The position numbers and the translations under genes are program-made. From an uncultured Methanosarcinales archaeon (GTDB lineage Archaea > Nanobdellota > Nanobdellia > Woesearchaeales > ARS49), in NCBI GenBank assembly GCA_964445485.1, contig CAYUPS010000009.1, positions 11,579 to 43,489 on the forward strand: 31,911 bases of DNA, given 5' to 3'. Below are positions 400 through 23,351 of the stretch, piece by piece. The first letter of the stretch is position 1, and each line of letters opens with the position of its first letter. The notes beneath the pieces are model-generated. The model was not told the origin of the DNA, made no database searches, and saw nothing but the letters and a program-made list of their open reading frames with translations.

Positions 400-930
400 A
401 TGGCACGCAAGCAATCAGACCCTCCGCCGCCGCGGGCGCCTTCCAAGAAGACGCCGAGGGAGAAGTTCAACGCCCTCTCTCGGGCGGAGAAGGATGCGCT
501 TCTCGAAGAGGCGCGACGGAAAGGGTTCTACGCAACAATCATCAACTGTCTCGGGCATCGGCGTCCGGACTCGCAGCATGAAGAGGAACTCAAGGATCGC
601 ACATTCGCCTTCCCTAACCAGGAGGGCAAGAGTGTCAGCGTCTCGAGACCGGCGGAGACCGTCATTGTCCGCCATTGGATGTACCGCGAAGCCGGCATCA
701 TGGTACGCCTGATCGCGTTCGACTACATGATGAGCAAGAAACAGGGCATCACGGTCAGTATCAGCATGCGCTCAGAGAACAATAGGAACGAGTATGACTC
801 GGTGTTCTACGCGACAGGCATGCCTGATCGCGAGCTGCGCATCGACATGTACTGGCCTGACAAGAACGGCTGGGAGCGGTACTTCTCCGTGTTTGCTTCC
901 AACAACAGACCTCCCGCACCGCAGTACTGA
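400..930 (+). CDS. hypothetical protein (176 aa), Pro/Lys-rich N-terminus
   Basis: In frame with the 250..930 track ORF. Start trimmed to ATG 400, preceded by GGAAGGAG. The 5' extension of the track ORF is Arg-rich junk. Confidence 0.6.
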   Translation: MARKQSDPPPPRAPSKKTPREKFNALSRAEKDALLEEARRKGFYATIINCLGHRRPDSQHEEELKDRTFAFPNQEGKSVSVSRPAETVIVRHWMYREAGIMVRLIAFDYMMSKKQGITVSISMRSENNRNEYDSVFYATGMPDRELRIDMYWPDKNGWERYFSVFASNNRPPAPQY

Positions 931-960
931 CCGCAACCTCTTTTTGAAGGAGAGCCGACA

Positions 961-2238
961 ATGAATCGCAACATCATTCCCGCAGTGCTCGCCCTCGTGC
1001 TGCTCGCGCTCGCCGGCTGCGGCGGCAAACGCACCCGGACCGCCGCCCCGAAGCAGGAGAGCGTTTCGACCGAGCGCCCCGCTCCTGCCGTGACGCCGCG
1101 GAGACTGCCTGTCAAGGAGCAACCTGCTGCGCAACTGCCCAAGAAGGAACCCACGCCAACGCCTCCCGAGACAATCATCAAGACAGTGGGCGGGGTTGAG
1201 TATACCGCAGTGGTGAGGTCGAAGGGCCACGCGGCGGGCGAAGCGAAAGAGCCGCCTGCGGTCAATGTCATGGCTGACATCGCAGCCGCGAGCGGCAAGC
1301 GCTGGAGCGTTCACTACACGCGCACGGGCTCTGCCATGAAGATGAACGTGATGCAAGATGGTCACGTGATGGTCGTCAGGTGCGACGGGAATATGTGGTC
1401 TGTCAGCAAGGGGCGGTGCATGATCGTGAGCGACCAGGCAGGTATGCGCGTGACGCTCAACGGGCTGCCGACCGAGACGAAGGAGGATGCCGAGGCCGCG
1501 CAGACGATCCTCGCAGGGGCGCAGGATCTCATGAACGTCGTGTATTCCTTGCTTGATGGAAAGGATGGCGGCAGCGTGCGGGAGGAGTTCGAGACGTTCA
1601 AGGATCTCCTGCCGGCGAAAGAGATGCCAAAGACGCAGGAAGAGCCGATGCGGCCCGCAGAGGTCGTGCAGCTCGAGGAGACGCACCCGCCCGCTGAGCG
1701 CGCGGCGAACAATCCGCCGATCATCGAGGTGACAGAACCTGAAGAGACCGTGATGCCCCTGGAGGAAACGCGAGAGACAGCCGTCATCGAGACAGCGCCT
1801 GCGGCGGAACCGATGCGGGAAGAAGAAGCTCCTGCGGCAGTCAGTGATGTGCAGCCGCCAAAAGAAGTCTCTTCTCCCGCTGAACCCGCGCCGACTCCCT
1901 CGGTGCAAGAGACGAAGCAGGCGGATATGGCTCCCGCGGCAGAGACGACCGCTGCGAGCCAGCCCAGCACTCCCTCGGGGAGTGAGCAGGCGGTGCCTGC
2001 GGAAGAGGATGGGCGCTCGCCCTGGTCAGTGGCGCTCATCCTGCTCGGGATCGCAGGGGTGATGTGGGTCGGATACATCGCGTATCGCAGATGGCCCTAC
2101 CTGCAAGAGCACCTCGCTCCCGCGCGAGGCACGCAGATGGAGCAGCACGTCAAGCACATCAATGAGAAGATGCGGGAGCAGAAGAAGGCCATCGTCCTTC
2201 CGGCGCAGCAGGACAGCACGGGACACCCTGCTGATTAG
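961..2238 (+). CDS. putative lipoprotein with a Pro/Glu/Thr-rich low-complexity spacer and a C-terminal transmembrane helix
   Basis: GAAGGAGAG RBS before ATG 961. Signal peptide plus lipobox LALAGC/GG. Globular segment at aa 60-200, then a long E/P/T/A-rich region, then hydrophobic WSVALILLGIAGVMWVGYIAY followed by a basic tail. Confidence 0.75.
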   Translation: MNRNIIPAVLALVLLALAGCGGKRTRTAAPKQESVSTERPAPAVTPRRLPVKEQPAAQLPKKEPTPTPPETIIKTVGGVEYTAVVRSKGHAAGEAKEPPAVNVMADIAAASGKRWSVHYTRTGSAMKMNVMQDGHVMVVRCDGNMWSVSKGRCMIVSDQAGMRVTLNGLPTETKEDAEAAQTILAGAQDLMNVVYSLLDGKDGGSVREEFETFKDLLPAKEMPKTQEEPMRPAEVVQLEETHPPAERAANNPPIIEVTEPEETVMPLEETRETAVIETAPAAEPMREEEAPAAVSDVQPPKEVSSPAEPAPTPSVQETKQADMAPAAETTAASQPSTPSGSEQAVPAEEDGRSPWSVALILLGIAGVMWVGYIAYRRWPYLQEHLAPARGTQMEQHVKHINEKMREQKKAIVLPAQQDSTGHPAD

Positions 2239-4147: not shown

Positions 4148-4876
4148 ATGCACCGCATGCTCATCGCGCTCACCCTCGTTACGGCCGCCGTGGCGTTCGC
4201 CGAAGAGAAGAAACCGGAACTCGCGCTCGTGTGCGCCTACGACCACGCCGAAACTGTCACGCCGCGCACCCCCGCCGTGCTCGAGAAGCTCAAGAACGGC
4301 AAGACCGTCGCGCTGTACACCGAGAACCAGCTCACCATGCTGCGCCTGGACGAGAAGGGCATCCTCCGCTCGCTCACCGCTGCATCGACGGACACCGAAG
4401 GCGTGACTCTGTTCGCCATGTACATCGGCAAGATGGGGGAGACTGCCGCGGACGACCGCCAGTACATCTTCGCCATGGGCGCCATGGTCTACGACCCCGC
4501 CAAAGACATGACAGGGCTCCACTTCCAGCAAGACCGAGCAGGCACGCACTCGCTCGCATCCCCTCCCGAAGGCTATAGCGCGGAACAGCTGGCGACCGCC
4601 TACACCGGCATCTTCCGCCAGCTCTTCGAAAGCATGCAGGTCAACGACGTGTGGAACGCCCTCCAGCTATCGATGGACAACGCCAAAGCGAAAGGAGACG
4701 CGCTCCGGAAGAAGCAAGAGCAGGAAGCGAAGGAATCCACCGAAGGCGCGCTCGAAGCGCTCAAGAGCGGCAAGGAGTTCATAGACGCGGAGCAGAAGCG
4801 CATCGAGGAGGAAGGCAAGCTCCTCGAGAAGATCTTCGAGGACATGTTCAAGGATCAGCCCGGCGAGGAAAACTAA
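4148..4876 (+). CDS. secreted protein with one copy of a novel 'C-x-YD ... GKTV-x-LYTEN' domain and a C-terminal coiled-coil-like E/K-rich region
   Basis: AAGGAGAAG RBS before ATG 4148 (start trimmed from track ORF 3917). Signal peptide MHRMLIALTLVTAAVAFA. Motif LVCAYDHAETVTP...NGKTVALYTENQLTMLRL is shared with the 11917..13188 product. Confidence 0.7.
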   Translation: MHRMLIALTLVTAAVAFAEEKKPELALVCAYDHAETVTPRTPAVLEKLKNGKTVALYTENQLTMLRLDEKGILRSLTAASTDTEGVTLFAMYIGKMGETAADDRQYIFAMGAMVYDPAKDMTGLHFQQDRAGTHSLASPPEGYSAEQLATAYTGIFRQLFESMQVNDVWNALQLSMDNAKAKGDALRKKQEQEAKESTEGALEALKSGKEFIDAEQKRIEEEGKLLEKIFEDMFKDQPGEEN

Positions 4877-4909
4877 CGCAGCACTGTGCTCTGCCGACGT
4901 AAACCCCTC

Positions 4910-4947
4910 AAGCGCGCCTCGTGCAGTCACGGCGAGGCGCGCTTTTT
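4910..4947 (+). terminator. rho-independent terminator
   Basis: Perfect 12-bp stem AAGCGCGCCTCG / CGAGGCGCGCTT, 11-nt loop, followed by TTTTT. Confidence 0.8.
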
Positions 4948-4965
4948 CCCAAGGAGACGTGCACC

Positions 4966-6462
4966 ATGAAAAAGGTAACCGGACGGCCCGACGAGAGGCT
5001 CGTCAACAAGATCAAACAGCAGTGGTATCAGTGGCCCGCCGCCCACTTCATCGGCAACGAGTGGGTGTCACCTTCAAACTTCATTAAGCTCATCCCCATC
5101 ATCAATCCAGCAACCGAAGAAAAAATCACCACGACCGTAGGCGGCCTGAAGGACGACATCGACCGCGCCGTCAGCGCTGCACGACATGCCTTCGAGCATG
5201 GCCAGTACCACGGCTGGAGCGGCAGGGACCGCGGCAACTTCCTCCGCAAACTCGCCGACCTGGTCGAAGAGCGCAGCGAAGAGCTCGCCATCCTCGAGTG
5301 CCTCAACAACGGCAAGCCCATCAACGAGCTGCGCGCCGTCGACCTGCCCATGACCATCAGCGTGCTCCGCTACTACGCAGGCATCGCCGAGAACATCCGC
5401 GGCGAGACCATCGACGTCCCCGGCCACCATGTGTACACGCGGCGCGAACCCATGGGCGTCGTCGGCAGCATCACCGCCTGGAACTTCCCGCTCCTGCTGC
5501 TCAGCTGGAAGTTCGGGCCCGCCATCGCCTGCGGCAACACCATGGTCCACAAGCCGCCCGAGCAGGCGCCCATGACGTCACTGCGCTTCGCAGAGCTGTG
5601 CCGTGAAGCAGGCCTGCCCGACGGCGTCTTCAATGTTGTCACCGGCGACCACGTTGCAGGATCGGCGCTCACGCACCACACGGGCGTCGACAAGGTCGGC
5701 TTCACCGGCCACTACAGCACCGGCCAGCTCGTCATGGAAGCCGCCGCCAAGAGCAATCTCAAGCGCGTCAGCCTGGAACTCGGCGGCAAGTCGCCGAACA
5801 TCATCCTCGACGATGCCGACATCGACGAAGCAGTGCAGGGCACCATCACCGGCATCTTCTTCAACCAGGGCCAGGTGTGCTGCGCCGGCTCGCGCCTGTT
5901 CCTGCCTAAGAAGATGAAGCAGAAATTCCTCACCAAACTCGCCAGCGCCGCCAACGCGCGCATCGTCGGCAACCCGCTCGACACCAACACCGAGCAAGGG
6001 GCGCAGATCAACCAAGAGCAGTTCGAGAAGATCCTCGGCTACATCGAGGCAGGCAAGAAGGAAGGCGCCAAGGCGCTCACCGGCGGCGAGCGCGCAGGGA
6101 ACCGCGGCTACTTCATCAAGCCCACCGTCTTCACCAACGTCGACGACAGCATGACCATCGCCCGCGAAGAGATCTTCGGACCGGTCGTCTGCGCCATGCC
6201 CTACGAGACGCTCGACGAAGTCGCCGCCCGCGCCAACGACACGCAGTACGGCCTCGGCGCAGCCATCTTCACCAAGGACATCCGCAAAGCCCACACCCTC
6301 GCCGCGAAGATCAAGGCGGGAACCGTGTGGATCAACTGCTACAACGCCTTCGACGCAACCGTCCCCTTCGGCGGGTACAAGATGAGCGGCTTTGGGCGAG
6401 AACTCGGCCGCAGCGCCATCGAACTGTACACGCAGGAGAAAGCAGTCTGGGTCAAGCTGTAA
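4966..6462 (+). CDS. NAD(P)-dependent aldehyde dehydrogenase family protein (498 aa)
   Basis: AAGGAGA RBS before ATG 4966. ALDH motifs ELGGKSP (catalytic Glu) and FFNQGQVCCAGSR (catalytic Cys), plus GSTxVG-like NAD-binding region. Full ALDH length. Confidence 0.9.
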   Translation: MKKVTGRPDERLVNKIKQQWYQWPAAHFIGNEWVSPSNFIKLIPIINPATEEKITTTVGGLKDDIDRAVSAARHAFEHGQYHGWSGRDRGNFLRKLADLVEERSEELAILECLNNGKPINELRAVDLPMTISVLRYYAGIAENIRGETIDVPGHHVYTRREPMGVVGSITAWNFPLLLLSWKFGPAIACGNTMVHKPPEQAPMTSLRFAELCREAGLPDGVFNVVTGDHVAGSALTHHTGVDKVGFTGHYSTGQLVMEAAAKSNLKRVSLELGGKSPNIILDDADIDEAVQGTITGIFFNQGQVCCAGSRLFLPKKMKQKFLTKLASAANARIVGNPLDTNTEQGAQINQEQFEKILGYIEAGKKEGAKALTGGERAGNRGYFIKPTVFTNVDDSMTIAREEIFGPVVCAMPYETLDEVAARANDTQYGLGAAIFTKDIRKAHTLAAKIKAGTVWINCYNAFDATVPFGGYKMSGFGRELGRSAIELYTQEKAVWVKL

Positions 6463-6547
6463 ACCACTGAACGACGCCGCCCGCGCCAGCCCAAGAAGCG
6501 GCGGGCGGCACTATCAGTACTGACCGCACCCTAGAAAGGAGCATACA

Positions 6548-6883
6548 GTGCTCACATCCCTCCTGCTTCACGCGTTTGCCAGCCTGCTGGGAATCGCCAT
6601 CATGATCTTCGGGTTCTTCGTCATCATCGGCATCATCGGACTGCCCTCCTCGAACCGCAACCGCAGGCGCACCATCCAGACACTCGCGTGCTCCCTGATA
6701 ATCATCCAGGGGACCATCATCCTCGACATGGGCCTCCTCGGCCTGTTCGAGACGTTACGTCTGCCGCTCACTGCACTCGTCGCAGTGCTCCTGGCAGTTC
6801 TGTTCCTGGTGCTGCACGGCAGGTGGCTGATCAGCTCCAGAAACGCATACGACAGCCGCCTGCATTCCGACCGAAAGGACTGA
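6548..6883 (+). CDS. small integral membrane protein (about 3 TM), GTG start
   Basis: GTG 6548 preceded by TAGAAAGGAG. Hydrophobic helices throughout. Confidence 0.6.
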   Translation: MLTSLLLHAFASLLGIAIMIFGFFVIIGIIGLPSSNRNRRRTIQTLACSLIIIQGTIILDMGLLGLFETLRLPLTALVAVLLAVLFLVLHGRWLISSRNAYDSRLHSDRKD

Positions 6884-6887
6884 CCTT

Positions 6888-7160
6888 ATGGCGCAGCACA
6901 TCATCACAGTCCCCTGCAAGGGACGCGACGCCGCAGGACAAGAAGTCTTAGCAGAACCGGTTCTCGCGGAGGTCAGCGTGTCTCACCGCACAGGCAGCAG
7001 CATCATCTCCCTCGATGTGCGCTGCCCCCACAACACCGGCAGCCACGGCCAGCGCTGCAAGGCCTCGCATCCGGGCAAGGACAAAGTGGGCGACGGCGTC
7101 GCGTGCTGCTACGCCTGCGACCTGCCCTACGCGCTGGAAAATAAATCCTCCAAGAGGTAA
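6888..7160 (+). CDS. small Cys-rich protein (90 aa), possible metal-binding
   Basis: Seven Cys, including CPHNTGSHGQRC and CCYAC. Weak RBS. Starts 5 nt after the previous stop. Confidence 0.45.
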   Translation: MAQHIITVPCKGRDAAGQEVLAEPVLAEVSVSHRTGSSIISLDVRCPHNTGSHGQRCKASHPGKDKVGDGVACCYACDLPYALENKSSKR

Positions 7161-7231
7161 GCAGGCATAAGCCGTGAACGTCCGTGTTAGCCCGAGAAGC
7201 GGAGGGCGGCAAGCACTCCGGAGAGCGACCA

Positions 7232-7477
7232 ATGGCAATCACGAAGACTGGAATCCTTTCGGGAGACGCATGCCCGGAGGAGAACGCACATCACATGTCG
7301 GCACTCGAGAAGGCGCTTGACAGGAAAATCCTGCGGGAATACCGGGGCGAAGGATGCGTAATTACCGTCCCCTTCGATGAGACTTGCAATCCTTCGACCA
7401 TCGGGCTCCTCGCACACATCTACCGACGGAACGGCTGGAGAGTCCATCTGGACACCGACTACCTCCAGATCTCTTGA
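7232..7477 (+). CDS. hypothetical small protein (81 aa)
   Basis: Start trimmed to ATG 7232, preceded by GGAGAGCG. Protein-like composition. Confidence 0.5.
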   Translation: MAITKTGILSGDACPEENAHHMSALEKALDRKILREYRGEGCVITVPFDETCNPSTIGLLAHIYRRNGWRVHLDTDYLQIS

Positions 7478-7497
7478 GAATCAGAAAGGAAGGTTTC

Positions 7498-7725
7498 ATG
7501 GATGCCGTGACGCTCCTGCTCTATGCCGGCGCTGCGCTCTCATTCAGCATGGCCCTATTTTGCATGCTGCGTGTTGCGATCGCGGCGTCTCGCGGCATGG
7601 GCGCGCTCCGCACACTCATAGCGGTGCTCGCGATCGGCGCGATCATCTTCGTCGGCGTCATCAGCTTTGAATGCGCGCACGCACGGCGCAAGACCTTGCT
7701 GTTCCAGCAGAATGGCTCTCCTTAA
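7498..7725 (+). CDS. small membrane protein (75 aa, 2 TM)
   Basis: AGAAAGGAAGG RBS before ATG 7498. Two hydrophobic helices. Confidence 0.55.
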   Translation: MDAVTLLLYAGAALSFSMALFCMLRVAIAASRGMGALRTLIAVLAIGAIIFVGVISFECAHARRKTLLFQQNGSP

Positions 7726-7761
7726 CGCAGTAAAGAGGCTCTACTCGAAAGAAGGTGACAA

Positions 7762-7878
7762 GTGAAAACTATACTGCTTATTCTGGCAGGAGCCATGCTG
7801 CTGTTCCTGGTGCTCGCAGGAATAGTGCTTCTCCTGTTCATTGTCGCTGTAGTTCAGAAAATATGGGAGCTACTCTGA
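7762..7878 (+). CDS. 38-aa hydrophobic micro-protein (single TM) just upstream of the ABC exporter (tentative)
   Basis: Not in the ORF track (too short). GTG 7762 after GAAGGTGA, with an alternative ATG at 7794. Encodes VKTILLILAGAMLLFLVLAGIVLLLFIVAVVQKIWELL. The region is locally AT-richer. Stop lies 8 nt before the ABC gene start. Confidence 0.3.
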   Translation: MKTILLILAGAMLLFLVLAGIVLLLFIVAVVQKIWELL

Positions 7879-7885
7879 GGAAAAC

Positions 7886-10726
7886 GTGACGCAACCCAGT
7901 CGCATCAACCAACGGCGGCAACGCCCGCTGCTTTCTGCGAGGTGTCCCATGAGCATGACAGTGACGACCGGACACGATCGTGCGCTGGTGGAAGCGGCGG
8001 TCGCCAAGGCGCAGGCCGGCGAGGCATTGCGCCGTCTGGGCATCCACACCATCGAGGCCTTCGCGCACAGCGACAGGACGCGCGAGGGCGATTTCGGCAG
8101 CACGGCGCTCATCATCACGCCCTCGGAGCTCATCACGATCAGCATCTCCGGTACACGTGTCGAGACGCGGCTGCCGCGCAAGAGTGTCATCGAGGTCAAG
8201 GAAGAGGAATTGCCCGGCGGAGGCAGCCTCGAAGCGAGGATGTGCGGCGGCGAGAAGGAATACATCATCCGCTACAGCAACAGCCGGCGCAAACTGTTTG
8301 GCAGCATCGCAGCGAGGCTCACCGAACAGGCGAAGTGGTCCGCGACGGGCGCCGGCGTCGAGCCGCCAAATCACTTCGATGATATCCTCGAGCAGGAGCG
8401 CAGGCGGCGCTGCCAGACATGCGACAGGCCCATCGAGAAAGGGGTGCAGCACTGCCCCGTCTGCCTTGATCGCGGCCAGACGTTCAAACGCCTGCTCTCG
8501 CTCGCGAAACCCTACCGCATGCGCCTCCTCACAGTCACGGCGCTCATGCTTCTCCAGACCGCCATCCTCCTCCTGCCGCCGTACCTGATCAAGCTGCTCG
8601 TCGACAGCGTGCTCACGCCGCCCGCGCAGCATCCGGAGTGGCGCTGGCCGCTGCTTGGCGGCGTGGCCGCGTGCTTCATCATCGCCATGGGTGTGCGGCT
8701 CGTGCGCGGCCGCCTGGCAGTGAGCATGGCTCACACCATGACCAAGGACCTGCGTGATACTGTGTTCGGCCACATCAGCGTCATGGACATGGCCTTCTTC
8801 GACCAGCAGAAGGTGGGGAAGCTCATCGCCCGCATCCACAGCGATCCGAGCAGGGTCAACAGCTTCCTCTCGAGCGGTCTGCAGATGGCGCTCGCCAACC
8901 TCCTCATGCTCATCGGTGTGGGGACCATGCTGCTGCTCATGCATCCCCTCATCGGGGGCCTGGCAGTCATGGCTTCCATCGCCGCAGTGACGATCACTAT
9001 GCTGGTGTGGAAGCGCATCGCCATCCGGTACCGCAGGGTGTGGGCAGCCGACTCGCACCAGGTGAGCTACCTGAGCGACAGCATGAGCGGCGTGCGCGTC
9101 ACCAAGACGTTCGGCAGGACCGACGAGGAGAACGCGCGGTTCGGCATGCTCAGCGGCGAGCTCGAGCGGCGCTTCATCGAAGCGGACGTGCTGTGGCTCA
9201 CCGTGCTCCCCGGCCTCATCCTGCTCTTCGAGCTCACCACGTTCCTCGTGTGGTCCTTCGGCTCGGGACAGGTCATGGCGGGCACGATGACCATCGGCAC
9301 GCTCATGGCGTTCATCGCGTACATCAGCATGTTCATCGGTCCGCTGAGCGCGCTGACCGAGATCAGCAACATGCTCATCCAGAGCCTCACCGCGGCAGAG
9401 CGCATCTTCGAGGTGCTCGACCGGCAGCCGCAGATCATGGAAGCCAAGAATCCCACGCGCATCCAGCGCATGCAGGGCCGCATCGAGCTGCGCAACGTCA
9501 CGTTCCGCTATCCCGGCGGCAAGCCCGCGCTCAACGACGTCTCTCTCACCATCCTGCCCGGCGAGACTGTCGGCATCGTCGGAAAATCGGGCGCCGGCAA
9601 GAGCACGCTGGTGGACATCATCACGCGCCTGCGCGACCCGGACAAAGGCATGGTGCTCATCGACGGCATCGATATCAGGGAGGTCTCCATTGAGGACATC
9701 CACCGGCAGATCGGGGTGGTGCAGCAGGAGCCGTTCCTCTTCTCAGGCACCATCGCGCAGAATATCGCCTACTCGCGCCCCGGCGCCACGCGCGAGGAGA
9801 TCATGGCAGCCGCAGCGGCCGCCAAAGGCGAGAAGTTCATCATGCAGAAACCGCAGCAATACCACACGCTCGTCGGAGAGCGAGGACAGGGACTCTCAGG
9901 AGGGGAACGGCAGCGCATCGCCATCGCGCGGGCCATCCTCCAGGACCCCGCCATCCTCATCCTCGATGAAGCCACATCGTCGCTCGACATGGAGACCGAG
10001 CGCGAGATACAGGAAGGCTTCGCCTACCTGACCAAGAACCGCACGACCATCGCCATCGCGCACAGGCTCAGCACGCTCGCCGGCGCCGACCGCCTGATAG
10101 TGATGGACGAAGGGAGCATCGTCGAAGAAGGCACGCACGAAGAGCTGCTGCGCAAGAGAGGCGTGTACGCGGCGCTCGTCGCGGCGCAGGAGCGGGCGCC
10201 CAACCGCGACGTGCCGGCCAAAGAGCTCCTCACGCAGCTCATCCTCCTCGATCCCGCGCACGTCCTGCTCGAGAGGGCATCGGCGCACGCACCCGTCCGC
10301 CTCACCTACCGCGCCGAGGTGCACGAGAAGGTCAAGCTCGTCCGCGCGCTCCCCGACACGGCCAAAGACGAGTGCATCAAGGTGCTCGACCCCGACGATA
10401 AGACCATCGGGCTCATCCACCGCGTAGCGAGCCTCATCCCCGGGCAGCAGGAGCTCGTTAGGCAGGAGCTCGAGCGGCGGCACCTCATCCCCACCATCCT
10501 GCGCATCCACTCCCTCAAGGACGAGCGGTATCATTACAGGATGGACGCGGACACGACCCGAGGAAGGGCAGTCTTCCTCATCGCCAACCCGCCCAACGAC
10601 CACATCAAGCGCATCGACATCGCCAAAGAGGCGTACCGCATCAACGACCTCGCAGGAGACCGCTACACACTCGACGTGAGCGCGCTGGACGCGAAAAGCC
10701 AGGCGCTGCTCGATGAGATCAAGTGA
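7886..10726 (+). CDS. fused ABC exporter (type-I exporter TMD + NBD) with an N-terminal PH-like domain of about 180 aa, a zinc ribbon and a C-terminal extension of about 190 aa
   Basis: GTG 7886 (GAGGAA upstream) or ATG 7949 (GAGGTG upstream); the start is ambiguous. Zinc ribbon [20 protein letters not shown]. Six TM helices. Walker [13 protein letters not shown] signature LSGGERQR, Walker [11 protein letters not shown]-loop IAHRL. About 190 aa follow the NBD. Confidence 0.9.
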
Positions 10727-10743
10727 ATCGGAAGGAGGGAACC

Positions 10744-11076
10744 ATGGCTGATCCGTTTGTCGTCACATCCAAGTGCATCGGCACCCGGGACACTGCCTGC
10801 ATGAAGGTGTGCCCCGTGAACTGCTTCTATGATGTGCCGCTCAAGGACCTCGGCCTGCAGGAGCCGGCCGATGCAACGCCCGAGCTGAAGAAGATGCTCA
10901 TCATCAACCCGGATGAATGCATCGGCTGCAGCGTGTGCGAACCCGAGTGCCCGGTGAACGCCATCTTCGACCTCAATGCGGTTCCGGACGAAGAGACGGC
11001 GTTCATCGACATCAACAAGAACTGGTTCGACGGCAAGAGCGCGGAGGAATTGGACAAGCACCGCATCACGCCGTGA
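10744..11076 (+). CDS. fdxA: 7Fe ferredoxin ([3Fe-4S][4Fe-4S], Azotobacter FdI/FdxA type)
   Basis: GGAAGGAGGG RBS before ATG 10744. Aligns with A. vinelandii FdI: FVVTSKC-x7-C-x3-CPVNCFY ... [22 protein letters not shown]. Confidence 0.85.
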
Positions 11077-11145
11077 GACATCTGCTGCCCGCGGGAGTGC
11101 CGCGCTCACCACGCGGCGCTTCACAAATCGCGACAAGGAGAGCCT

Positions 11146-11850
11146 ATGACATTTAGCATCTACACCATGCAAGAAATCGACGGCATCGTCGAAGTCGGCC
11201 CGAAGCCTGAGACGAGCAACGCCGCAAGAATCGCGCTCATCGATCTCGCGGAACAGCTAAGGAAGTCTGGCTGGATTGAGCAGCACACCCTCGCGGACGG
11301 GCGGGAATTCAAGTTCCCCTTCGAGAAGCCCAACCCTGCAGCGCTACGGGACTTCTTCGGCGGCGAGAAGGACCTCAATATCGTCCAAGCGGAGATCGAC
11401 GAGCTTGAGCGGCAGTGGCGCGCGGAACTCAAGGCTGCCAAGGATATCCTCCAGGACGAAATCGCGAACGCAAAAACGATTGAGGACTTCGATAAGATTC
11501 TGGAGAAGTACCACTACGACAGCCCCGCCAACAAGCAGACATCGGACCGGCACTCCTACAACTGCGATCGAAACCGCTTGCACCGCGAACTCACCCACGA
11601 ACGAGCGGAGGCGGTCAAGATCCTTGAGAGCAATCATTCCAACTGGTGCCGCAGCCACGTCGCCCACCTCTACAACTGCTGTGGTGATGCGATGTTCTAC
11701 GGCGCCGGCTGCTGGATGATGCGCGCCATCCCCGCCAGCGCCGAAGCGAAGGACCTCATCGAGCGATTCTTCACGAGCGCACGCCTGCCGTACCAGACCA
11801 TCGATCTCGCCGCGCTGCGTAAGGACGTGCAGAAGAAGATGCAGCAGTAA
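11146..11850 (+). CDS. hypothetical cytoplasmic protein with a Cys/His cluster (234 aa)
   Basis: AAGGAGAG RBS. Cys/His-rich segment HSYNCDRNRLH...NWCRSHVAHLYNCCGDAMFYGAGCWM. Confidence 0.65.
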   Translation: MTFSIYTMQEIDGIVEVGPKPETSNAARIALIDLAEQLRKSGWIEQHTLADGREFKFPFEKPNPAALRDFFGGEKDLNIVQAEIDELERQWRAELKAAKDILQDEIANAKTIEDFDKILEKYHYDSPANKQTSDRHSYNCDRNRLHRELTHERAEAVKILESNHSNWCRSHVAHLYNCCGDAMFYGAGCWMMRAIPASAEAKDLIERFFTSARLPYQTIDLAALRKDVQKKMQQ

Positions 11851-11916
11851 CCACACACTCCGGATGCGTGCCGCGCGGCACCAACGGACAACGAATACAC
11901 CAGACAAGGAGTCCCC

Positions 11917-13188
11917 ATGAAATACGCACTCGCCCTGCTGCTCGCACTCAACGTCACCATCCTCGCCGCCGAAGCGCCGCCCGTCACGTACATCTGCATG
12001 TACGACCTGAAGGCGACGCCGGACGGCACGGACCTCGACATGGGCTCGTTCAACGCCAAGGTCAAGGAAGGCGGCATCGTCGTCCTCTACACCGAGAACA
12101 GCGCCCTCATCACGCACCAGAAGGACGGCATCGTCTACCAGATGGCCATCGGTCCGGAAGAGGACTGGTTCGACTCCTTCGTGATCAGCTGCAAGTCCGG
12201 CGATCCCGATAGCCAGACGGAGCTGTGCCTCATCAGCGGAAGCGTGCACGGTTCGAAATTCGACGGACCGGATACCGTGCTCGCGCTGAAGGTCCATAAT
12301 ATCGAGATCGGCAGCTACAAGATGTATACCACCAGGAACTTCGCGGATATTCTCCCGGCAGGATACAACCGCGGGCAATTCATGGCAGCGACTGAGAAAT
12401 TGGTCAATCGCGTGTCGAAGATGCTGCGATCGAACGACGTACTCCTCGTCATCGAGCAGGCGAAGGATGCCATCCTCGCCAAGCGGAAAGCATACGTGAA
12501 GCTCGCCATGGAAGTCCAGGAGAAGCACAACGCGAGCCTCGCAGCGCATGAAGAATCGGCGCTGGGAATCCTCAGGAATGCTGCCGTGGCGGGACAGCTC
12601 GGCAATGACGCAGGACGGGTCAACATCTGCGAGTACGACCTGCTCCCCACCGCCGACGGAGAGCTCGTCGCGAGCGATACATACCTCCTTAATCGGCAAG
12701 AAGTCGCGGCGCCGCTCAAGGAAGGGAAGACAGTCGTGACCTACACGGAGAGCAGCATGATCGTCCGGCGCCAAGTCGGCAAGAGAGAGGTCCAAGCCGG
12801 CAGCTTCTCCAACGGGCGGGGAGTCGTGCGCGTCTATGACATCGGCGACAAGGGAGCCACGCTGCTCTTGTCGCTCGAGGGAGAGCTGCAGGTGGGAACC
12901 ACGCTCGATGGAGAGGAGATCGCCGCCATCGACGTGGATTACTGCTGGGTCGCGCCGTGGTCCGGTCTCGACAACCCTCCCAAAGGGATGGGCGCCGAAC
13001 AGGTGAAGCGCAACGCGGCGGCATTCTGCGACAGGGTATTGCGCTCGATGGACTTCTCGGCGAGAGTCCTCGAGTTCCGACGGACACTGCAGAACGACGG
13101 CAAGGAGAAGCTCAAGGGCGCCCAAGAGCGCATGAAGACCCGGCAAGAGAGCATCGACAAGAAAGCGCTGGAGCTGCTCGGGAAGTAA
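11917..13188 (+). CDS. secreted protein with two copies of the 'C-x-YD ... LYTE' domain plus coiled-coil-like regions
   Basis: AAGGAG RBS. Signal peptide MKYALALLLALNVTILAA. Copy 1: YICMYDLKATPDG...EGGIVVLYTENSALI. Copy 2: VNICEYDLLPTADG...EGKTVVTYTESSMIV. Paralogous to the 4148..4876 product. Confidence 0.7.
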   Translation: MKYALALLLALNVTILAAEAPPVTYICMYDLKATPDGTDLDMGSFNAKVKEGGIVVLYTENSALITHQKDGIVYQMAIGPEEDWFDSFVISCKSGDPDSQTELCLISGSVHGSKFDGPDTVLALKVHNIEIGSYKMYTTRNFADILPAGYNRGQFMAATEKLVNRVSKMLRSNDVLLVIEQAKDAILAKRKAYVKLAMEVQEKHNASLAAHEESALGILRNAAVAGQLGNDAGRVNICEYDLLPTADGELVASDTYLLNRQEVAAPLKEGKTVVTYTESSMIVRRQVGKREVQAGSFSNGRGVVRVYDIGDKGATLLLSLEGELQVGTTLDGEEIAAIDVDYCWVAPWSGLDNPPKGMGAEQVKRNAAAFCDRVLRSMDFSARVLEFRRTLQNDGKEKLKGAQERMKTRQESIDKKALELLGK

Positions 13189-14994: not shown

Positions 14995-15621
14995 ATGAAA
15001 CGGAGCACCGTCGTGAAACTCGTGATCGCCATCAGCGTGGCGCTCGCCACCGTGGCCATCATCGACCTGCGGAGGAAGACGCCAGCGGAACCCGCGCTGC
15101 CGGCGCCCCCGCCGGAACAGACCGCACCGCAAGAGCCCCCTCGGAAGGAGACGCCGAAGCCAATCGACGACTTCGCGCCCTTCGAGACGCTTTTCAAGAA
15201 AGACTACTGGCCATTCCTGACCAAGAAGATCGTGCAGCTGCCCATGACGTACACCCGCGACAACTTGGGCGAAGAGGCCGAGCACGGCGGCATGGAAATG
15301 GACATCCGCGACGACCACATGCAGCGACAGTGGACAGTGGAATACAAATGCCACCTGTTCATATCAACCGGCCCGCTCGAAGTCCTCGAGACGCTCACCA
15401 TCAAGACTGAAGGAAAGACCCTCTCCATACTCCGAGTCGGCGACATGAACAGCGCGGACCTCATCACCGTCAACACACAACAGCTGGAGCTGATGCAGGA
15501 TCAGAACAAACCCCCCACCATCAAACGGAACGGCGGAACCGTATTCACCGCCGAAGAAGCGTCAAAACGCCTCACACAGTGCCGCGAACTGCTCGAGCGC
15601 GTCGCGACAAGCACGAAGTGA
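14995..15621 (+). CDS. membrane-anchored protein (N-terminal TM, Pro-rich linker, globular C-domain); possible partner of the downstream SPFH protein
   Basis: AAGGAGG RBS. TM VVKLVIAISVALATVAIIDL, then a P-rich linker. Sits immediately 5' of the SPFH gene, the usual position of NfeD-like partners. Confidence 0.65.
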   Translation: MKRSTVVKLVIAISVALATVAIIDLRRKTPAEPALPAPPPEQTAPQEPPRKETPKPIDDFAPFETLFKKDYWPFLTKKIVQLPMTYTRDNLGEEAEHGGMEMDIRDDHMQRQWTVEYKCHLFISTGPLEVLETLTIKTEGKTLSILRVGDMNSADLITVNTQQLELMQDQNKPPTIKRNGGTVFTAEEASKRLTQCRELLERVATSTK

Positions 15622-15702: not shown

Positions 15703-16632
15703 ATGGAACTCACCACCATCCTGATGATCGCCGGCAGCGCAGTGGCGTTCATCTTCTTCCTCCGCGGCTTCCGTCAGGTCGATCAGACCGAGCGCGGCCT
15801 CATCGAGCGCTGGGGCAAATTCGTCGGCTTCGCCGAGCCCGGCCTGCACTGGATCCTGCCAGTCATGTACCGCATGCGGCGCGTGGATATCACTGAGAAG
15901 ATGGTCGCCTCCGGCACGCAGGACATCATCACCAAGGACAAGCTGAACGCCAGCGTCGACCTCGTCGTGTACTTCCAGGTGCAGAGCGATGAGGAATCCA
16001 TCAAGAAGAGCCAGTACAGCGTCTCCGACTATGAGACGCAGATCGTCAGCCTGGCCCGCACCACGGCGCGCAACATCATCGGCAAGCTGAGCTTCACCGA
16101 GACGAACTGCGAGCGCGAGAAGCTCAACACGCAGCTCGAGGAACATCTCAAGAAGGAAGTGCAGGCGTGGGGCCTGCGCATCGTGCGCGTCGAACTGCAG
16201 GAGATCGACCCGCCCGACATCGTGCAGAACGCGATGAATGAAGTTGTGACTAATGAGCAGAAGAAGCTCGCGGCGACCGACTTCGCGACCGCCAAGGAGA
16301 CCGAAGCGGACGGCGAGCGCAGAGCCGCTGTCAAGAAGGCGCAGGGCGAGGCCGAAGCGGTGCAGGTGCGCGCCAAGGCTGATGCTGAGGCCGTGACGCT
16401 CAAGGCCGAAGCGCATGCGAAGGCAATCGAGCTGGTCAACACCGCCGCCGAGAAGTACTTCAAGGGGAACGCGCAGACGCTCAAGCGCCTCGAATCCATG
16501 GTGGAAGCCACCAAGGCCAACACGAAGATCATCTTCACGAGTGACAATCGCACGCTCGAGACGCTGCTCGCCGCCGCGGCGGGAATCAAGGAAAGCACGC
16601 CGCAGGAGCCCGCCGCCAAACCGGCGACATAG
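15703..16632 (+). CDS. SPFH/band-7 (stomatin/HflKC-like) membrane protein
   Basis: GAAGGAGG RBS. N-terminal TM. SPFH core RGLIERWGKFVGFAEPGLHWILPVMYRMRRVDI ..., followed by an Ala/Glu/Lys-rich coiled-coil tail. Confidence 0.9.
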   Translation: MELTTILMIAGSAVAFIFFLRGFRQVDQTERGLIERWGKFVGFAEPGLHWILPVMYRMRRVDITEKMVASGTQDIITKDKLNASVDLVVYFQVQSDEESIKKSQYSVSDYETQIVSLARTTARNIIGKLSFTETNCEREKLNTQLEEHLKKEVQAWGLRIVRVELQEIDPPDIVQNAMNEVVTNEQKKLAATDFATAKETEADGERRAAVKKAQGEAEAVQVRAKADAEAVTLKAEAHAKAIELVNTAAEKYFKGNAQTLKRLESMVEATKANTKIIFTSDNRTLETLLAAAAGIKESTPQEPAAKPAT

Positions 16633-16639
16633 CATCCTC

Positions 16640-16669
16640 GCCGCCCCTCGTCCGCGTGAGAGGGGCGGC
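16640..16669 (+). terminator. possible attenuator/terminator hairpin (no U-tract)
   Basis: 10-bp perfect stem GCCGCCCCTC / GAGGGGCGGC with a 10-nt loop, directly after the SPFH stop. No T-run follows. Confidence 0.3.
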
Positions 16670-16706
16670 AAACACCCGCATCTCAACAATAGAAAGGAGA
16701 CAGCAC

Positions 16707-17087
16707 GTGAAACGCGGTTTTACCATCATCGAGCTGCTGATCGTGATCGCCATCATCGCGATTCTCGCAGCGATCGTCCTGCCCATGCTCGACAAGAGAC
16801 GGGAGCGGCAGCGCATGCTCAACAACACCGTCTCCCTGATCGAACTGCGCAACGATCTCGGCGAGTGGAGCATCACGAGCATGGACGTCGAAGGAGGCGA
16901 CAAGCATCTGATCACGCTCTCGCGCACAATCAACGCCACCGTCGAGACGAAGAGCGTGTACGTGAGCAAGGAGGCCTTTGAGCTGCTCTGGCCGCGCTGG
17001 GAGCACCATCGCAAGGTCAGCACACTTCTCCAGGACCTCCCTGCGCAAGTGGAGAGGGGCGCAGCGAACGCGGAAGAGGGGATTTAG
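16707..17087 (+). CDS. prepilin-type N-terminal cleavage/methylation domain protein (type IV pilin-like/pseudopilin)
   Basis: GTG 16707 after TAGAAAGGAGA. Sequence VKRG/FTIIELLIVIAIIAILAAIV is a class III signal peptide with Glu at +5. Confidence 0.8.
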   Translation: MKRGFTIIELLIVIAIIAILAAIVLPMLDKRRERQRMLNNTVSLIELRNDLGEWSITSMDVEGGDKHLITLSRTINATVETKSVYVSKEAFELLWPRWEHHRKVSTLLQDLPAQVERGAANAEEGI

Positions 17088-17159
17088 GCGGCGTAAGGAC
17101 GCGGCAGCCCATCCTGTAGAATGGGCGGCGAGAAACACTCATTCATCGCGAGGTGCATT

Positions 17160-18020
17160 ATGCGGGCATTCTGCCTCATCGCGGCATTGCTGGCGGCGAA
17201 CATCGTCGCTGCCGAAGACGAAGCGCTCAACGAAGACCTGCCGCAGGTCACGACGATCCGGCGCTTCATGCAGGACGGCCGGCAGCTGATGGAGCTCACG
17301 CTGCGCCAGGACGGCAAGGACGTGAGCATCTTCATCGACCTGGCCAAGACGCCCGAGGCCCAGCTGCTCCAGCCGGGCGACCGCATCACGGGAGAGTACA
17401 AGAAGGAGAACCGGACGCTCTGGATGACCGCGACGCACATCATCGGCGCGAACGGCCTGCCTATCACGATGGTCACGGAAGACCGCGCGCGGCGGATCAG
17501 GGCCATCGACGCGAGCAAGAACCCCATCGTCGTGACGCTCGATGACGGCACGGTCTACAAGATCGACGGCCTGCTGCATCCCTGGTACGTGCGGCTCAAG
17601 AAGGGGCAGGGCGTGTGCTTCGACTACGTGCAGCGGAGCGAGGACCGCTGGGCGCACGCCGCGACCATCCGGCTCTTCGCGCCGGGCGTCCCTGACACGC
17701 GTCTTGAGACGTGGTCCTTCGGCGTCGAGGACGAAGTCGAGACAGTCGTGTGGGAGAACCAGCACGTCTGCCAGGTAACGACCCGCGGCAAGCGGCGGTT
17801 CTGGATCGACGTGCGGGTCTATCCGGGCTGCCGGCACTTCGTGAGGGGATTCCGCCTGCCGTTCGGCGCCCTTATCTACCAGAACAGGCACTGGCAGCCG
17901 CAGGCATGGTGGGTCAAGCACCATCACCGCCACAGGCACCACATGCGCGATCATCACCGCGGCAAGGGCGATGGCAAGAAGCACCGCGGCGGCAAGCACA
18001 AGGGAGGCAAGAAGAAATAA
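17160..18020 (+). CDS. secreted protein with a C-terminal His/Lys/Gly-rich tail
   Basis: GAGGTG RBS before ATG 17160. Signal peptide MRAFCLIAALLAANIVAA. C-terminus HHHRHRHHMRDHHRGKGDGKKHRGGKHKGGKKK. Confidence 0.65.
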   Translation: MRAFCLIAALLAANIVAAEDEALNEDLPQVTTIRRFMQDGRQLMELTLRQDGKDVSIFIDLAKTPEAQLLQPGDRITGEYKKENRTLWMTATHIIGANGLPITMVTEDRARRIRAIDASKNPIVVTLDDGTVYKIDGLLHPWYVRLKKGQGVCFDYVQRSEDRWAHAATIRLFAPGVPDTRLETWSFGVEDEVETVVWENQHVCQVTTRGKRRFWIDVRVYPGCRHFVRGFRLPFGALIYQNRHWQPQAWWVKHHHRHRHHMRDHHRGKGDGKKHRGGKHKGGKKK

Positions 18021-19340: not shown

Positions 19341-21395
19341 ATGTCTCGGAATGAATTCGACCGCAGTGGAGGCGGGCAGGGCTTCTTCGAGAAGAATCGG
19401 GGGAAGCTCATCCTCTTCGCCGTCATCGGCATCCTGCTCCTGATCATCAGCTTCGCCACCATCGGCTCCGTTGATCCGGCCCACGGGGAGTTCTACGTGT
19501 GGCGCAACATCATGGGCAAGGAGCTCCCGCCCGGCCAGATCATCGCGGACGAGGGCCAGGCGGGCTTCACGCGCAAGATGCACACGCAGGGCTGGGAGTG
19601 GTACTTCTTCAAGAACATCACGAGGAAGCTCGAAGGACCCTTCACCGTCACCGAGGTCGGCCCCGGCCAGATATGCACGCTGGTCCAGCACACCGGCAAG
19701 CCGCTGCCCGAAGGGATGATTCTCGCGCCCGTGAACCGCAATGAGGACGGCACGCCGAAGCTCAACGAGATGGGCCTGCCCGAATCGGACTACATGGGCA
19801 TGCTGGACGAGATGCTCGGCCCGGGGCAGTACCGCGTGCATCCGAAGATGTACACGCCGCAGCTGTTCGACTGGGTGGATGTGCCGTCGAATCAGATCTG
19901 CATCCTCAAGCAGAACGACGGCATGTCTCTTCCCGAAGGTATGCTGCTCGCGCCTGTCGAGCGCACTGCGGATGGGACGCCGAAGCTCAACGAGATGGGC
20001 ATGCCCTACAGCAAGTACCGCGGCATGCTGGATGAATACCTCACGCCCGGCCAGTACCGCATCCATCCGGGCAAGTACAAATCGCTGCTGGTGAACATGA
20101 GCGAGGTCAAAGCGGGAGAGGTGGGCGTTCTCGTGCGGCGCGCAGGCCTGCCGCTGCCCGACGGCGAATTCATCGCACCCATCGACCGCAATGAGGACGG
20201 ATCCGCGAAGCTGCGCGACAGCATCCCGCAGTCGCGCTACAAGGGCATCCTGGCAGAAGTGCTCAAGCCGGGCCAGTACCGCGTCCATCCGGGCATCTAC
20301 GAGTTCATCACGGAGAAAGCGGTGCGGGTCATGCCTGGCGAGGTCGGCGTCGTGACCGCCCTCACCGGCAAGTCCAAACCGGAGACGCAGCTGCTCGCCA
20401 AGGAGGGCGAGCGCGGCGTGCAGGAGAAAGTTCTCCCTGCCGGCACGTACTACCTCAACCCTCACATGGTCAAGGTGGACAATTTCTCCATCCAGTCCCA
20501 CCTGACCGAATTCTTGCAGGACGACAAAGCGGAGACCTTCGACGAGATCGACTTCCCGTCGAACGAAGGGTTCATGCTCAAACTCGATATCGCTGTCGAG
20601 TGGAGGGGCGACGAGAACAGGATCCCTGAGCTGTTCGTGCGGCTCGGCAACATCAAGGACCTGCAGCACAAGGTCGTCGTGCCCAACACCAGGTCGATCG
20701 CGCGGACGGAAGGCAGCAAGTACGGCGCGAAGCAGTTCATCCAAGGCGCGACGCGCGAGCAGTTCGAGAAGGCGTTCTTCGATGAACTGAAGGAGGTGTG
20801 CGCGGAGAAGGGCGTGCAGATCATGCGGGGCGTGGTGCGCAAGCTCACCGTCCCCGAGCAGATCTCGGAGCCCATCCGCATGGCGGAGATCGCCCGCCAG
20901 GAAGTGCTGCGCAACAAGGAGGAAGTGGAACGGGCAAAGTCTGCTGCGCTCAAGATGGAGGAAGAGACGCGCATCGAGCAGCGCAAACAGCAGATCGACG
21001 CTGAGACGCAGAAGATGGTCGCGGACACCAATGCTCAACAGCGCCTCTCCGTCGCCAAGGTCGAGCTGGACACCGCAAAGCAGGAGGCAGAGGCGACCAA
21101 GACGCGCGGCGATGCCGAAGCGCATGTCATCTTCGCCAAGAAGAAGGCGGAGGCGGACGGCGTGAGGGTCATGACCGAGGCATTCGGCGGGGGCGAGAGC
21201 CTGGCGCGGTACGAGATGGCGAAGGCCGTGTCGGCCAACACGACGTTCGTGTGGCTGCCGTCGAACGAAGGGACGTTCTGGGGCGGCGGTGGTACTGAAG
21301 GGCTGCTGGGTGACATGACCAAGTGGCTCGTCAAGGACGCCCGCAAGAGCAATACTGACGGCACGGAGAAGCCTGTGCCGCTCAAGAGCCGCTAA
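19341..21395 (+). CDS. membrane-anchored SPFH/band-7 domain protein preceded by three (about 3.5) tandem 75-aa repeats
   Basis: CAGGAGA RBS. TM LILFAVIGILLLIISFATIG. Three repeats at aa 101-325 (consensus V-x-PG-x-I/V ... LPEGM-LAPV-R-EDGTPKLNEMG-P-S-Y-GMLDE-L-PGQYRVHP-x-Y). SPFH core from aa 330 (MPGEVGVVTALTGKS...LPAGTYYLNPHMVKV). Ala/Glu/Lys-rich coiled-coil tail. Confidence 0.85.
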   Translation: MSRNEFDRSGGGQGFFEKNRGKLILFAVIGILLLIISFATIGSVDPAHGEFYVWRNIMGKELPPGQIIADEGQAGFTRKMHTQGWEWYFFKNITRKLEGPFTVTEVGPGQICTLVQHTGKPLPEGMILAPVNRNEDGTPKLNEMGLPESDYMGMLDEMLGPGQYRVHPKMYTPQLFDWVDVPSNQICILKQNDGMSLPEGMLLAPVERTADGTPKLNEMGMPYSKYRGMLDEYLTPGQYRIHPGKYKSLLVNMSEVKAGEVGVLVRRAGLPLPDGEFIAPIDRNEDGSAKLRDSIPQSRYKGILAEVLKPGQYRVHPGIYEFITEKAVRVMPGEVGVVTALTGKSKPETQLLAKEGERGVQEKVLPAGTYYLNPHMVKVDNFSIQSHLTEFLQDDKAETFDEIDFPSNEGFMLKLDIAVEWRGDENRIPELFVRLGNIKDLQHKVVVPNTRSIARTEGSKYGAKQFIQGATREQFEKAFFDELKEVCAEKGVQIMRGVVRKLTVPEQISEPIRMAEIARQEVLRNKEEVERAKSAALKMEEETRIEQRKQQIDAETQKMVADTNAQQRLSVAKVELDTAKQEAEATKTRGDAEAHVIFAKKKAEADGVRVMTEAFGGGESLARYEMAKAVSANTTFVWLPSNEGTFWGGGGTEGLLGDMTKWLVKDARKSNTDGTEKPVPLKSR
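19641..20315 (+). repeat. 3 x 225-bp in-frame tandem repeat inside the SPFH-repeat gene
   Basis: Period 225 nt, e.g. CCGAAGCTCAACGAGATGGGC at 19755 and 19980 and GCGAAGCTG at about 20205. Copies are diverged at the DNA level. Confidence 0.8.
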
Positions 21396-21549: not shown

Positions 21550-22119
21550 ATGAAGTTCACTGCGTTGCTGCTGTGCTGCGTGGCGATGGTCTTCGCGCCG
21601 ATGGCGTTCTGCGCCGACGCGCTGCCGACCATGCCCGAGGAGGAGCTGCTGCAGAAGTTCGGCGACCACACCATCGCGTGCCCGATCCGCTCGGAGAAGA
21701 ACGAGTGGTACGCGCTGACGCTCCAGAAGGGCGAGACGGGCATGAGCATGTTCGTCACGCAGGAGATGTACGGGCGCGTCGTGGTCGGCATGGCGCACTC
21801 GGCGCCGACACTGGGCGAGCTCCTGCCGGAGGAGGCGAAGGCGGCGGAGAAGGCGCTCGAGAGCGCGCACGGCCCTCTCGAGAGGGTGCGTGCGTTCATG
21901 CACGTCGAAACGATGAAGCTGAAGGTCCTGGGCACGCATCCGAGCGGCAAGGAGTGGTGCGCCGTGCTGGCGTTCATCCATCCGAATGGCGTGGGGTTCA
22001 TCGAGAACCCGCTCACGCAGGAGGAAGCGGAGACGCTCGGGAAGGCGCTCGAGAGCAAGCGCGTGACGCTCACGGCGGCCCTCAAGGCGCAGAAGGCGCT
22101 GGTGGAGAAGAAGGAATAG
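21550..22119 (+). CDS. secreted protein with an internal duplication (189 aa)
   Basis: AAGGAGGTG RBS before ATG 21550. Signal peptide MKFTALLLCCVAMVFAPMAFCA. Internal halves: KNEWYALTL...LPEEAKAAEKALES versus GKEWCAVLA...LTQEEAETLGKALES. Confidence 0.7.
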   Translation: MKFTALLLCCVAMVFAPMAFCADALPTMPEEELLQKFGDHTIACPIRSEKNEWYALTLQKGETGMSMFVTQEMYGRVVVGMAHSAPTLGELLPEEAKAAEKALESAHGPLERVRAFMHVETMKLKVLGTHPSGKEWCAVLAFIHPNGVGFIENPLTQEEAETLGKALESKRVTLTAALKAQKALVEKKE

Positions 22120-22653: not shown

Positions 22654-23037
22654 TCAGTACCGCTGCGTCTTCAAACCGCGCACCGTCAAGAGCGCCTCGT
22701 TGCGCGTGAGCACCTGCTCATTGTGGTGCAGGGCGAACCCCGCGATCATCGCATCGTCCCACGAGAGCATCCTGCTCGCCGCGCGCGCCTCGGCAGCGAC
22801 TGCGGCAGCGCGCCGCGCGCACTCCGCATCGAGCGGCAGCGTCGTGAGCGCGTCGAGCAATTCATGCACGAGCGCGCGCTTGTGCGCAGGGAGCGAATGC
22901 GTCGCGGCCTGGATCTGGAACACCGACGGGGCGGTCGCCCGCACAGGCGTGCCGGCGCGCTCTATCTCCTGCGCCATCATGACAGCATGGCTCTCGCCGC
23001 GCAAAAGGTCGATGAGGAACTGCGTATCGAGTATCAT
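22654..23037 (-). CDS. vapC: PIN-domain toxin VapC
   Basis: N-terminus MILDTQFLIDLLRG typical of VapC. Acidic PIN residues. 4-nt ATGA overlap with the upstream antitoxin gene. Confidence 0.85.
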   Translation of the reverse strand: MILDTQFLIDLLRGESHAVMMAQEIERAGTPVRATAPSVFQIQAATHSLPAHKRALVHELLDALTTLPLDAECARRAAAVAAEARAASRMLSWDDAMIAGFALHHNEQVLTRNEALLTVRGLKTQRY

Positions 23038-23267: not shown

Positions 23268-23351
23268 AGTAAATACACATACATACACTTAGGTATAAGT
23301 CATTTTAGAACCACTACGGAGTGCTCAACATGCCAATATATAGTGAAAGAC
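23268..23351 (-). promoter_or_regulatory. AT-rich putative vapBC promoter/operator region
   Basis: GC drops sharply here. Contains the (CATA)-like direct repeat ACACATACATACAC and A/T tracts between the dtdA stop and the vapB start. Confidence 0.3.

Follow-up and report, generated by a model that had tools for sequence, protein, structure and literature searches.

What is to be made of two archaeal genes whose products resemble each other, and resemble no family that has a name? The question is raised by a stretch of 31,911 nucleotides from an uncultured Methanosarcinales archaeon (contig CAYUPS010000009.1, positions 11,579 to 43,489 of the forward strand), which is called here the window. 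Gene A lies at 4148-4876 on the plus strand and encodes 242 amino acids. Gene B, at 11917-13188 on the same strand, encodes 423 amino acids that are arranged as two tandem units. A first-pass annotation, made from the letters without database searches, held that these two genes carry three copies of a new secreted domain family. As far as sequences can tell, this is right at the level of a sequence family, and A and B very likely represent a real, exported family of orphan paralogues.

Lineage-specific exported paralogues are, of course, common, and extreme rarity is typical of orphans. The family described here looks like an ordinary orphan of this kind, rather than like a new system. What it adds is one well-delimited family. 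Its limits and invariant residues are defined, a model of it can be used, and the annotation of an under-sampled lineage is helped by it.

Three related units in two genes

The question of homology presupposes that A and B are genes. Both open reading frames (ORFs) are confirmed at these coordinates, and each has the Shine-Dalgarno sequence AAGGAG ahead of its ATG (8 nucleotides 5' in A, 5 nucleotides 5' in B). The G+C content at third codon positions (GC3) is 0.85 in A and 0.82 in B, in agreement with the recognisable annotated genes of the window, which has ~62% G+C. Long antisense ORFs that overlap A and B have the mirrored composition of a "shadow." Because the ribosome binding sites, the GC3 signature and the shadow pattern on the opposite strand all point the same way, A and B are evidently real genes.

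Are the three units then homologous? The core motifs on which the proposal was built are present exactly. In A, LVCAYD is found at 4226-4243 and KNGKTVALYTEN at 4292-4327. In the first unit of B, YICMYD is found at 11989-12006 and KEGGIVVLYTEN at 12064-12099; in the second, NICEYD is found at 12622-12639 and KEGKTVVTYTES at 12718-12753. BLASTP with composition-based statistics gives E-values of 5e-6 over 209 columns for A against the C-terminal half of B, 1e-3 over 180 columns for A against the N-terminal half, and 1e-6 for one half of B against the other.

The obvious competing explanation is that compositionally biased stretches, in particular the tails rich in Glu and Lys, create a resemblance that is not homology. 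Signal peptides and charged tails were removed before the sequences were shuffled, 2000 times for each pair. The Smith-Waterman z scores are 6.0, 7.3 (the value given for B unit 2) and 9.9; the real score was reached by 1 shuffle in the first case and by none in the other two. Because z scores of 6-10 persist once the tails are gone, the similarity is not a product of those tails, and compositional bias is ruled out as its source. The signal is concentrated in the first ~55 amino acids of each unit. In the C-terminal part, the similarity is weakly significant for A against either unit of B (9 and 28 of 2000 shuffles reach the score), and it has no significance for B unit 1 against B unit 2.

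Two homologues encoded outside of the window, P0006 and P0008, provide a second line of evidence. A profile made from these two proteins alone recovers all three units: A at 1e-16 over its full length, B unit 1 with an independent E-value (i-E) of 2.8e-8 across profile positions 11-150, and B unit 2 at its core only, with 3e-3. Among the 336 six-frame ORFs of the window, it matches no other. These matches bear out independently that the two genes contain three copies. The profile of the family also gives two domain matches in B.

Here, the notion that the similarity arises by chance or from composition, or that the ORFs are not genes, can be weighed. It draws on the lack of significant similarity between unit 1 and unit 2 of B in their C-terminal parts. 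It must, however, contend with z scores of this size without tails, with a profile from other proteins that recognises all three units, with a homologue in a second organism at 51% G+C, and with the coding GC3 signature and Shine-Dalgarno sites. It is so improbable as to deserve almost no weight.

Comparison of the five units (A, B unit 1, B unit 2, P0006 and P0008) leaves as invariant the C, Y and D of a C-x-Y-D motif, the G, V and Y of a G-x-x-V-x-x-Y motif, and the P and G of a P-x-G motif. This amends the first description in two respects. The "TE-[NS]" that had been included in the family motif is confined to the copies in the window, the outside homologues being without it. Further, the domain had been given a size of ~90 amino acids, while the real unit has ~145-155 amino acids followed by a helical tail.

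B unit 2 is the most divergent unit. B goes back to an old event, a tandem duplication or a fusion, and a helix connects its two units. Searched with a profile of the three units, the 336 ORFs of the window yield no further relative, and all-against-all BLASTP of the window genes returns the A/B pair only. Three other exported proteins, at 14995-15621, 17121-18020 and 21550-22119, were considered as hidden paralogues and rejected, the hhalign comparison of each with the family profile being negative.

Rarity of the family

The domain was presented as an unrecognised one, and the databases do not recognise it either. For A and B, nothing in Pfam, NCBIfam, PADLOC or PHROGs reaches or approaches the cut-off, and no PDB sequence matches significantly. 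When 1.84 billion cluster representatives are searched exhaustively with hmmsearch, six proteins come out at E <= 1e-3, A and B themselves included, and only two of the six are further genuine members. These are P0006 (223 amino acids, E 1.7e-11) and P0008 (230 amino acids, E 7e-4), both matched over their full length and both having the size and layout of A. The other two, P0005 and P0007, are long YDG-type repeat surface proteins and were rejected as artefacts; their E-values are summed over 6-14 near-identical repeats, and a single repeat, aligned with positions 97-141 of the profile, earns just -2.5 to 10.5 bits.

P0006 is the closest relative of A, with 32% identity over 199 amino acids. 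It is not encoded in the window, and is very probably the product of a third paralogous gene that lies on the same 43,489-nucleotide contig, in the 11.6 kb beyond the window; its NCBI source and the length of its contig agree with those of four proteins of the window. One contig would then probably hold three genes of the family, with four units among them, a placement that fits a local expansion of paralogues. P0008 comes from an ENA metagenome contig (L001) that has 2,013 nucleotides and 51% G+C. Its neighbours there are a small membrane ORF and two small ORFs upstream (66-464 and 518-1024, plus strand) that are paralogues of each other, with 35% identity over 126 amino acids, and that have no counterpart in the window. 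No neighbour gene is common to the two loci.

Broader searches add nothing to this list. Word-indexed searches of 5.8 billion proteins, using as queries B alone, the full-length five-row alignment and the tail-trimmed alignment of five units, found no new member, a negative that is weak because the index missed some of the query members too. When genome, metagenome and viral contigs were scanned for P0006, B and P0008, no relatives came up, and each window protein that was tested is a singleton at 90% identity. Thus, the family is extremely rare and has no known sequence relatives. It appears to be very small, fast-diverging and restricted to a lineage.

A distribution this narrow would also fit a reading of A and B as conflict proteins. 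They might be exported immunity proteins or inhibitors directed against secreted toxins or lytic enzymes, or surface proteins that exclude phages, with an arms race driving their divergence. Several divergent paralogues (17-32% identity) on one contig would suit this, as would the small size, the export and the richness in beta structure of the proteins, and a VapBC pair does lie within the window. The neighbours of A and B, however, include no toxin, Rhs, type VI secretion system, phage or defence gene by Pfam, NCBIfam, PADLOC or PHROGs, and tblastn of B against a collection of phages and of A against a collection of plasmids found no match. An origin of the family in such conflicts is judged unlikely.

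Export and the anatomy of the unit

Signal peptides had been assigned to both proteins. By inspection of their sequences alone, A and B, and P0006 and P0008 as well, do begin with Sec-type N-termini. In each, a basic n-region leads into a core of ~12-15 hydrophobic residues, positions -3 and -1 are taken by small residues, and the candidate cleavage sites (marked by a slash) are AFA/EE, ILA/AE, LHA/AE and GYA/QE, respectively. In A, the putative signal peptide covers residues 1-18 (4148-4201, on the plus strand, as are all features of A and B); it is MHRMLIALTLVTAAVAFA, followed by EE, and has 15 residues in its hydrophobic core, after an n-region that is basic, with A-F-A as the cleavage motif. 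The predicted local distance difference test (pLDDT) score, a measure of model confidence, is <50 for residues 1-21. In B, the signal peptide is again assigned by inspection to residues 1-18 (11917-11970). So read, the members of the family are envelope proteins exported by Sec.

The alpha/beta domain of A, delimited by alignment and by AlphaFold2 (AF2), extends over residues 19-164 (4202-4639). It holds CAYD at 4232-4243, the G..V..Y motif within 4292-4327 and PPEGY at 4562-4576. Behind it, residues 165-242 (4640-4873) form a charged C-terminal region that AF2 models as a helix from 165 to 235. Unit 1 of B, which the outside-only profile recognises, occupies residues 19-172 (11971-12432), with LPAGY at 12352-12366. 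A helical linker at residues 173-230 (12433-12606), where a helix is predicted with low confidence for residues 173-221, leads to unit 2, supported by BLASTP and the shuffles, at residues 231-379 (12607-13053), with PPKGM at 12976-12990. B ends in a predicted charged helix, residues 380-423 (13054-13185).

These tails had been called coiled-coil-like and rich in Glu and Lys. Long charged helices are indeed predicted; a coiled coil is no more than possible, the heptads being weak. In the best 28-residue window of the tails, 5-6 of the 8 heptad a/d positions are hydrophobic (mean 3-4). The tails are 49-55% charged, with net charges from -7 to +6, and neither length nor net charge is conserved. 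That of A is 49% charged and has an isoelectric point (pI) of 4.6 and weak heptad regularity, while the linker helix of B is 29% charged with a net charge of 0.

The invariant Cys of the C-x-Y-D motif might be read in more than one way. As the lipidated residue of a lipoprotein cleaved by signal peptidase II, it was considered and rejected, there being no lipobox [LVI][ASTVI][GAS]-C. The Cys stands 8-14 residues past the hydrophobic core, beyond charged residues, and the residue at -1 is V or I in all five units.

Alternatively, the Cys-x-Tyr-Asp motif might make the exported protein an enzyme that depends on a thiol, or else a protein that binds metal or takes part in redox reactions. The invariant Cys is the single cysteine in mature A, and genes for a ferredoxin and an aldehyde dehydrogenase are nearby. 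Across the five units, however, there is no invariant His, no second invariant Cys and no other set of residues of the catalytic type. Enzyme families in Pfam and NCBIfam give no match, nor was a likeness found to any enzyme family or fold. P0006 and P0008 do have a second Cys in the next strand, b2, and this could simply pair with the invariant one. Chemistry at this Cys is accordingly rated as highly improbable.

The predicted fold

Structure prediction, proposed as a check on the domain, gives it an alpha/beta plan. The AF2 model of A, for which the input was a five-row alignment, has a mean pLDDT of 79.4 and a predicted template modelling score (pTM) of 0.64, and the five models are concordant (76.8-79.4). 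The model begins with a strand at residues 25-29 that ends in C-x-YD. This is followed by a helix at 42-49, six strands within 53-131, a helix at 145-162 that comes right after P-P-x-G-Y, and one long helix at 165-235. The first strand of the six-strand meander carries V-x-x-Y. In the model of full-length B, both halves repeat the order of elements seen in A; because its pLDDT of 45 is too poor, this model was not used in the fold comparison.

Is this a fold that has been seen before? Foldseek, searching the PDB with the model of A, places a p32 homologue first, with an E-value of 0.026 and template modelling (TM) scores of 0.31/0.39. It reports no match at E <= 1e-3, and a structure search of BFVD gave no meaningful match. 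By two methods, the best structural match to A is the Mam33/p32/gC1qBP group (3qv0, 1p32, 3jv1, 1yqf). Proteins having the p32 fold are known mainly as acidic eukaryotic proteins, largely mitochondrial, that bind multiple ligands. In the Mam33-like fold, six to seven antiparallel strands are preceded by a helix at the N-terminus and followed by helices at the C-terminus, and the protein builds a tight, strongly acidic trimer with a pI of 4.0-4.4 (PMC2881812). A homologue of p32 from Vibrio cholerae is also listed (PMC2881812).

As modelled, the family roughly follows the general plan of Mam33/p32, in which a short N-terminal helix, an antiparallel meander of 6-7 strands and C-terminal helices on one face may be discerned. 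It differs in having an extra N-terminal strand before that helix, the strand that bears the invariant C-x-YD, in having a charged tail helix of 45-80 residues, in its signal peptides and export, and, in B, in its tandem arrangement. It is also far less acidic. The pI of the domain is 5.03 in A, 4.96 and 4.66 in the units of B, 5.24 in P0006 and 8.40 in P0008; four of these five are mildly acidic and the last is basic, to be compared with 4.0-4.4 for Mam33/p32.

These differences bear on the idea that the family truly belongs, as a very distant and exported branch, to the Mam33/p32/gC1qBP superfamily, and would assemble as a doughnut-shaped trimer. The structural match is what commends this idea. 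Against it stand the pI values, the extra strand ahead of the helix, and the fact that the proteins appear to be exported, and are neither mitochondrial nor cytosolic. Sequence comparison is no kinder. Pfam MAM33 matches neither of the two proteins and none of the five units, with a threshold as loose as E <= 10; the hhalign probability for the five-unit profile against human p32 is 0.1%; and the family profile finds no p32 chain among PDB sequences. True membership is thus quite unlikely. Because the structural scores are in the grey zone, sequence and profile support is missing, the acidity does not agree and the proteins are exported, Mam33/p32 is taken as the closest analogue of the family, and not as the family to which it belongs.

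The first-pass annotation had set its domain against the possibility that it might match a well-known fold family. Such a match exists weakly, in the grey-zone likeness of the model to Mam33/p32, and the fold, if the model is correct, is probably not new. Also among the Foldseek matches are START/AHSA1-like (Bet v 1-like) bacterial proteins without an assigned function (3otl, 3uid, 3put, 2ldk), which have in common with A an antiparallel sheet on which a long C-terminal helix lies.

The tails have an analogue of their own in the charged single alpha-helix (SAH) stalks, such as that of myosin VIIa (5wsu), which are likewise charged, form one long helix and contain many opposite-charge pairs at i/i+4. 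The sole match of the family profile to a PDB sequence is to a segment of this kind, with a non-significant E-value of 0.32. Because the sequence, length and net charge of the tails are not conserved, the likeness is one of composition and not of homology.

What the proteins might do

If the proteins are indeed exported, they would reside in the cell envelope. The favoured role for each there is that of a non-enzymatic module for binding or scaffolding. In this mechanism, the helix introduced by P-P-x-G-[YHM] is predicted to pack on the sheet. The open face of the sheet would mediate self-association or the binding of a partner, as in the Mam33/p32 fold. The charged helix would serve as an oligomerising element or as a spacer stalk. 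The lone invariant Cys might lie in the core, or might form a disulfide between molecules or with a partner.

Several observations weigh against such a mechanism. Nothing in the context points to any partner or to oligomerisation. The model of A rests on an alignment of five sequences, and that of B, with its pLDDT of 45, is unreliable. The heptad periodicity of the tails is weak. Last, an invariant Cys that is the sole one in mature A could signify chemistry, not scaffolding. The binding or scaffold mechanism, which leans on the predicted model, is therefore offered as a tentative possibility, somewhat more apt to be wrong than right. The exported orphan family and this mechanism, when taken together as one reading, are held to be about evenly balanced between right and wrong.

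Neighbouring genes

A and B belong to a same-strand run of genes that spans 961-22567. The majority of genes in this run have no recognisable family, and many encode signal peptides or membrane segments. Between A and B are unrelated genes, including those for an aldehyde dehydrogenase, an ABC exporter and a ferredoxin. The locus-specific function that the first-pass annotation took the paralogous copies to suggest is so far a conjecture.

The run also contains two genes for SPFH (Band 7) proteins, at 15703-16632 and 19341-21395. This allows a view in which A and B are accessory subunits of SPFH assemblies, docking to these through their charged helices. The shared run is consistent with this, and the E/K-rich helices of the family do resemble the C-terminal regions of SPFH proteins. 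The first SPFH gene, however, begins 2.5 kb past the end of B and 10.8 kb past the end of A, with unrelated genes in between, and Pfam and NCBIfam detect no NfeD-like or other known signature of an SPFH partner. The contig that encodes P0008, the sole locus from another organism, has neither an SPFH gene nor an ABC gene, although at 2 kb it is too short to decide the matter. A role as SPFH subunits is considered very unlikely.

A more ambitious combination can be imagined. The family might be the first example of an exported branch, open to tandem duplication, of the Mam33/p32 fold, or might have a separate fold. It would form rings on the outside of the cytoplasmic membrane and, together with the SPFH cage proteins encoded nearby, make up a lineage-specific system that organises the envelope. 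This is a long shot. The finding would, of course, matter more if true homology were behind the weak likeness to Mam33/p32, or if the family did partner the nearby SPFH assemblies; neither is yet supported.

Some of the neighbours are of interest in their own right. The SPFH/Band_7 protein encoded at 19341-21395 (plus strand) has 684 amino acids and contains, N-terminal to its Band_7 domain, three tandem repeats of ~75 amino acids (residues ~96-320, 41-65% identical), each ending in PGQYR[VI]HP. Directly after the first SPFH gene, a small protein (16656-17087, plus strand) carries a prepilin-type N-terminal methylation motif (PF07963). The ABC exporter (7886-10726, plus strand) has an N-terminal extension of ~195 amino acids with a CxxC...CxxC pattern and a C-terminal DUF1854. 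Its best NCBIfam model, "cyanophycin metabolism-associated ABC transporter," scores 565 bits, which is under the cut-off of 880 bits. The 4Fe-4S ferredoxin gene (10744-11076) follows close behind, and an alternative GTG start at 10723 would overlap the stop codon of the exporter.

Two further proteins of the run lack a family match. One (17121-18020, plus strand), with 299 amino acids and a signal peptide, ends in a tail rich in His, Arg, Lys and Gly, HHHRHRHHMRDHHRGKGDGKKHRGGKHKGGKKK. The other (961-2238, plus strand), with 425 amino acids, combines the lipobox LALAGC with long stretches rich in Pro, Glu and Ala, and its C-terminal part holds a membrane segment.

At the end of the run, on the minus strand, is the VapBC pair, with a PIN-domain VapC toxin at 22654-23037 and a VapB antitoxin at 23037-23288. 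At 23352-24158, also on the minus strand, is a gene for a D-aminoacyl-tRNA deacylase of the PF04414 type, which is chiefly an archaeal and plant type, in a contig that has a bacterial look otherwise. RNA genes are represented in the window by a single tRNA-Ser (anticodon TGA), at 31143-31227 on the minus strand.

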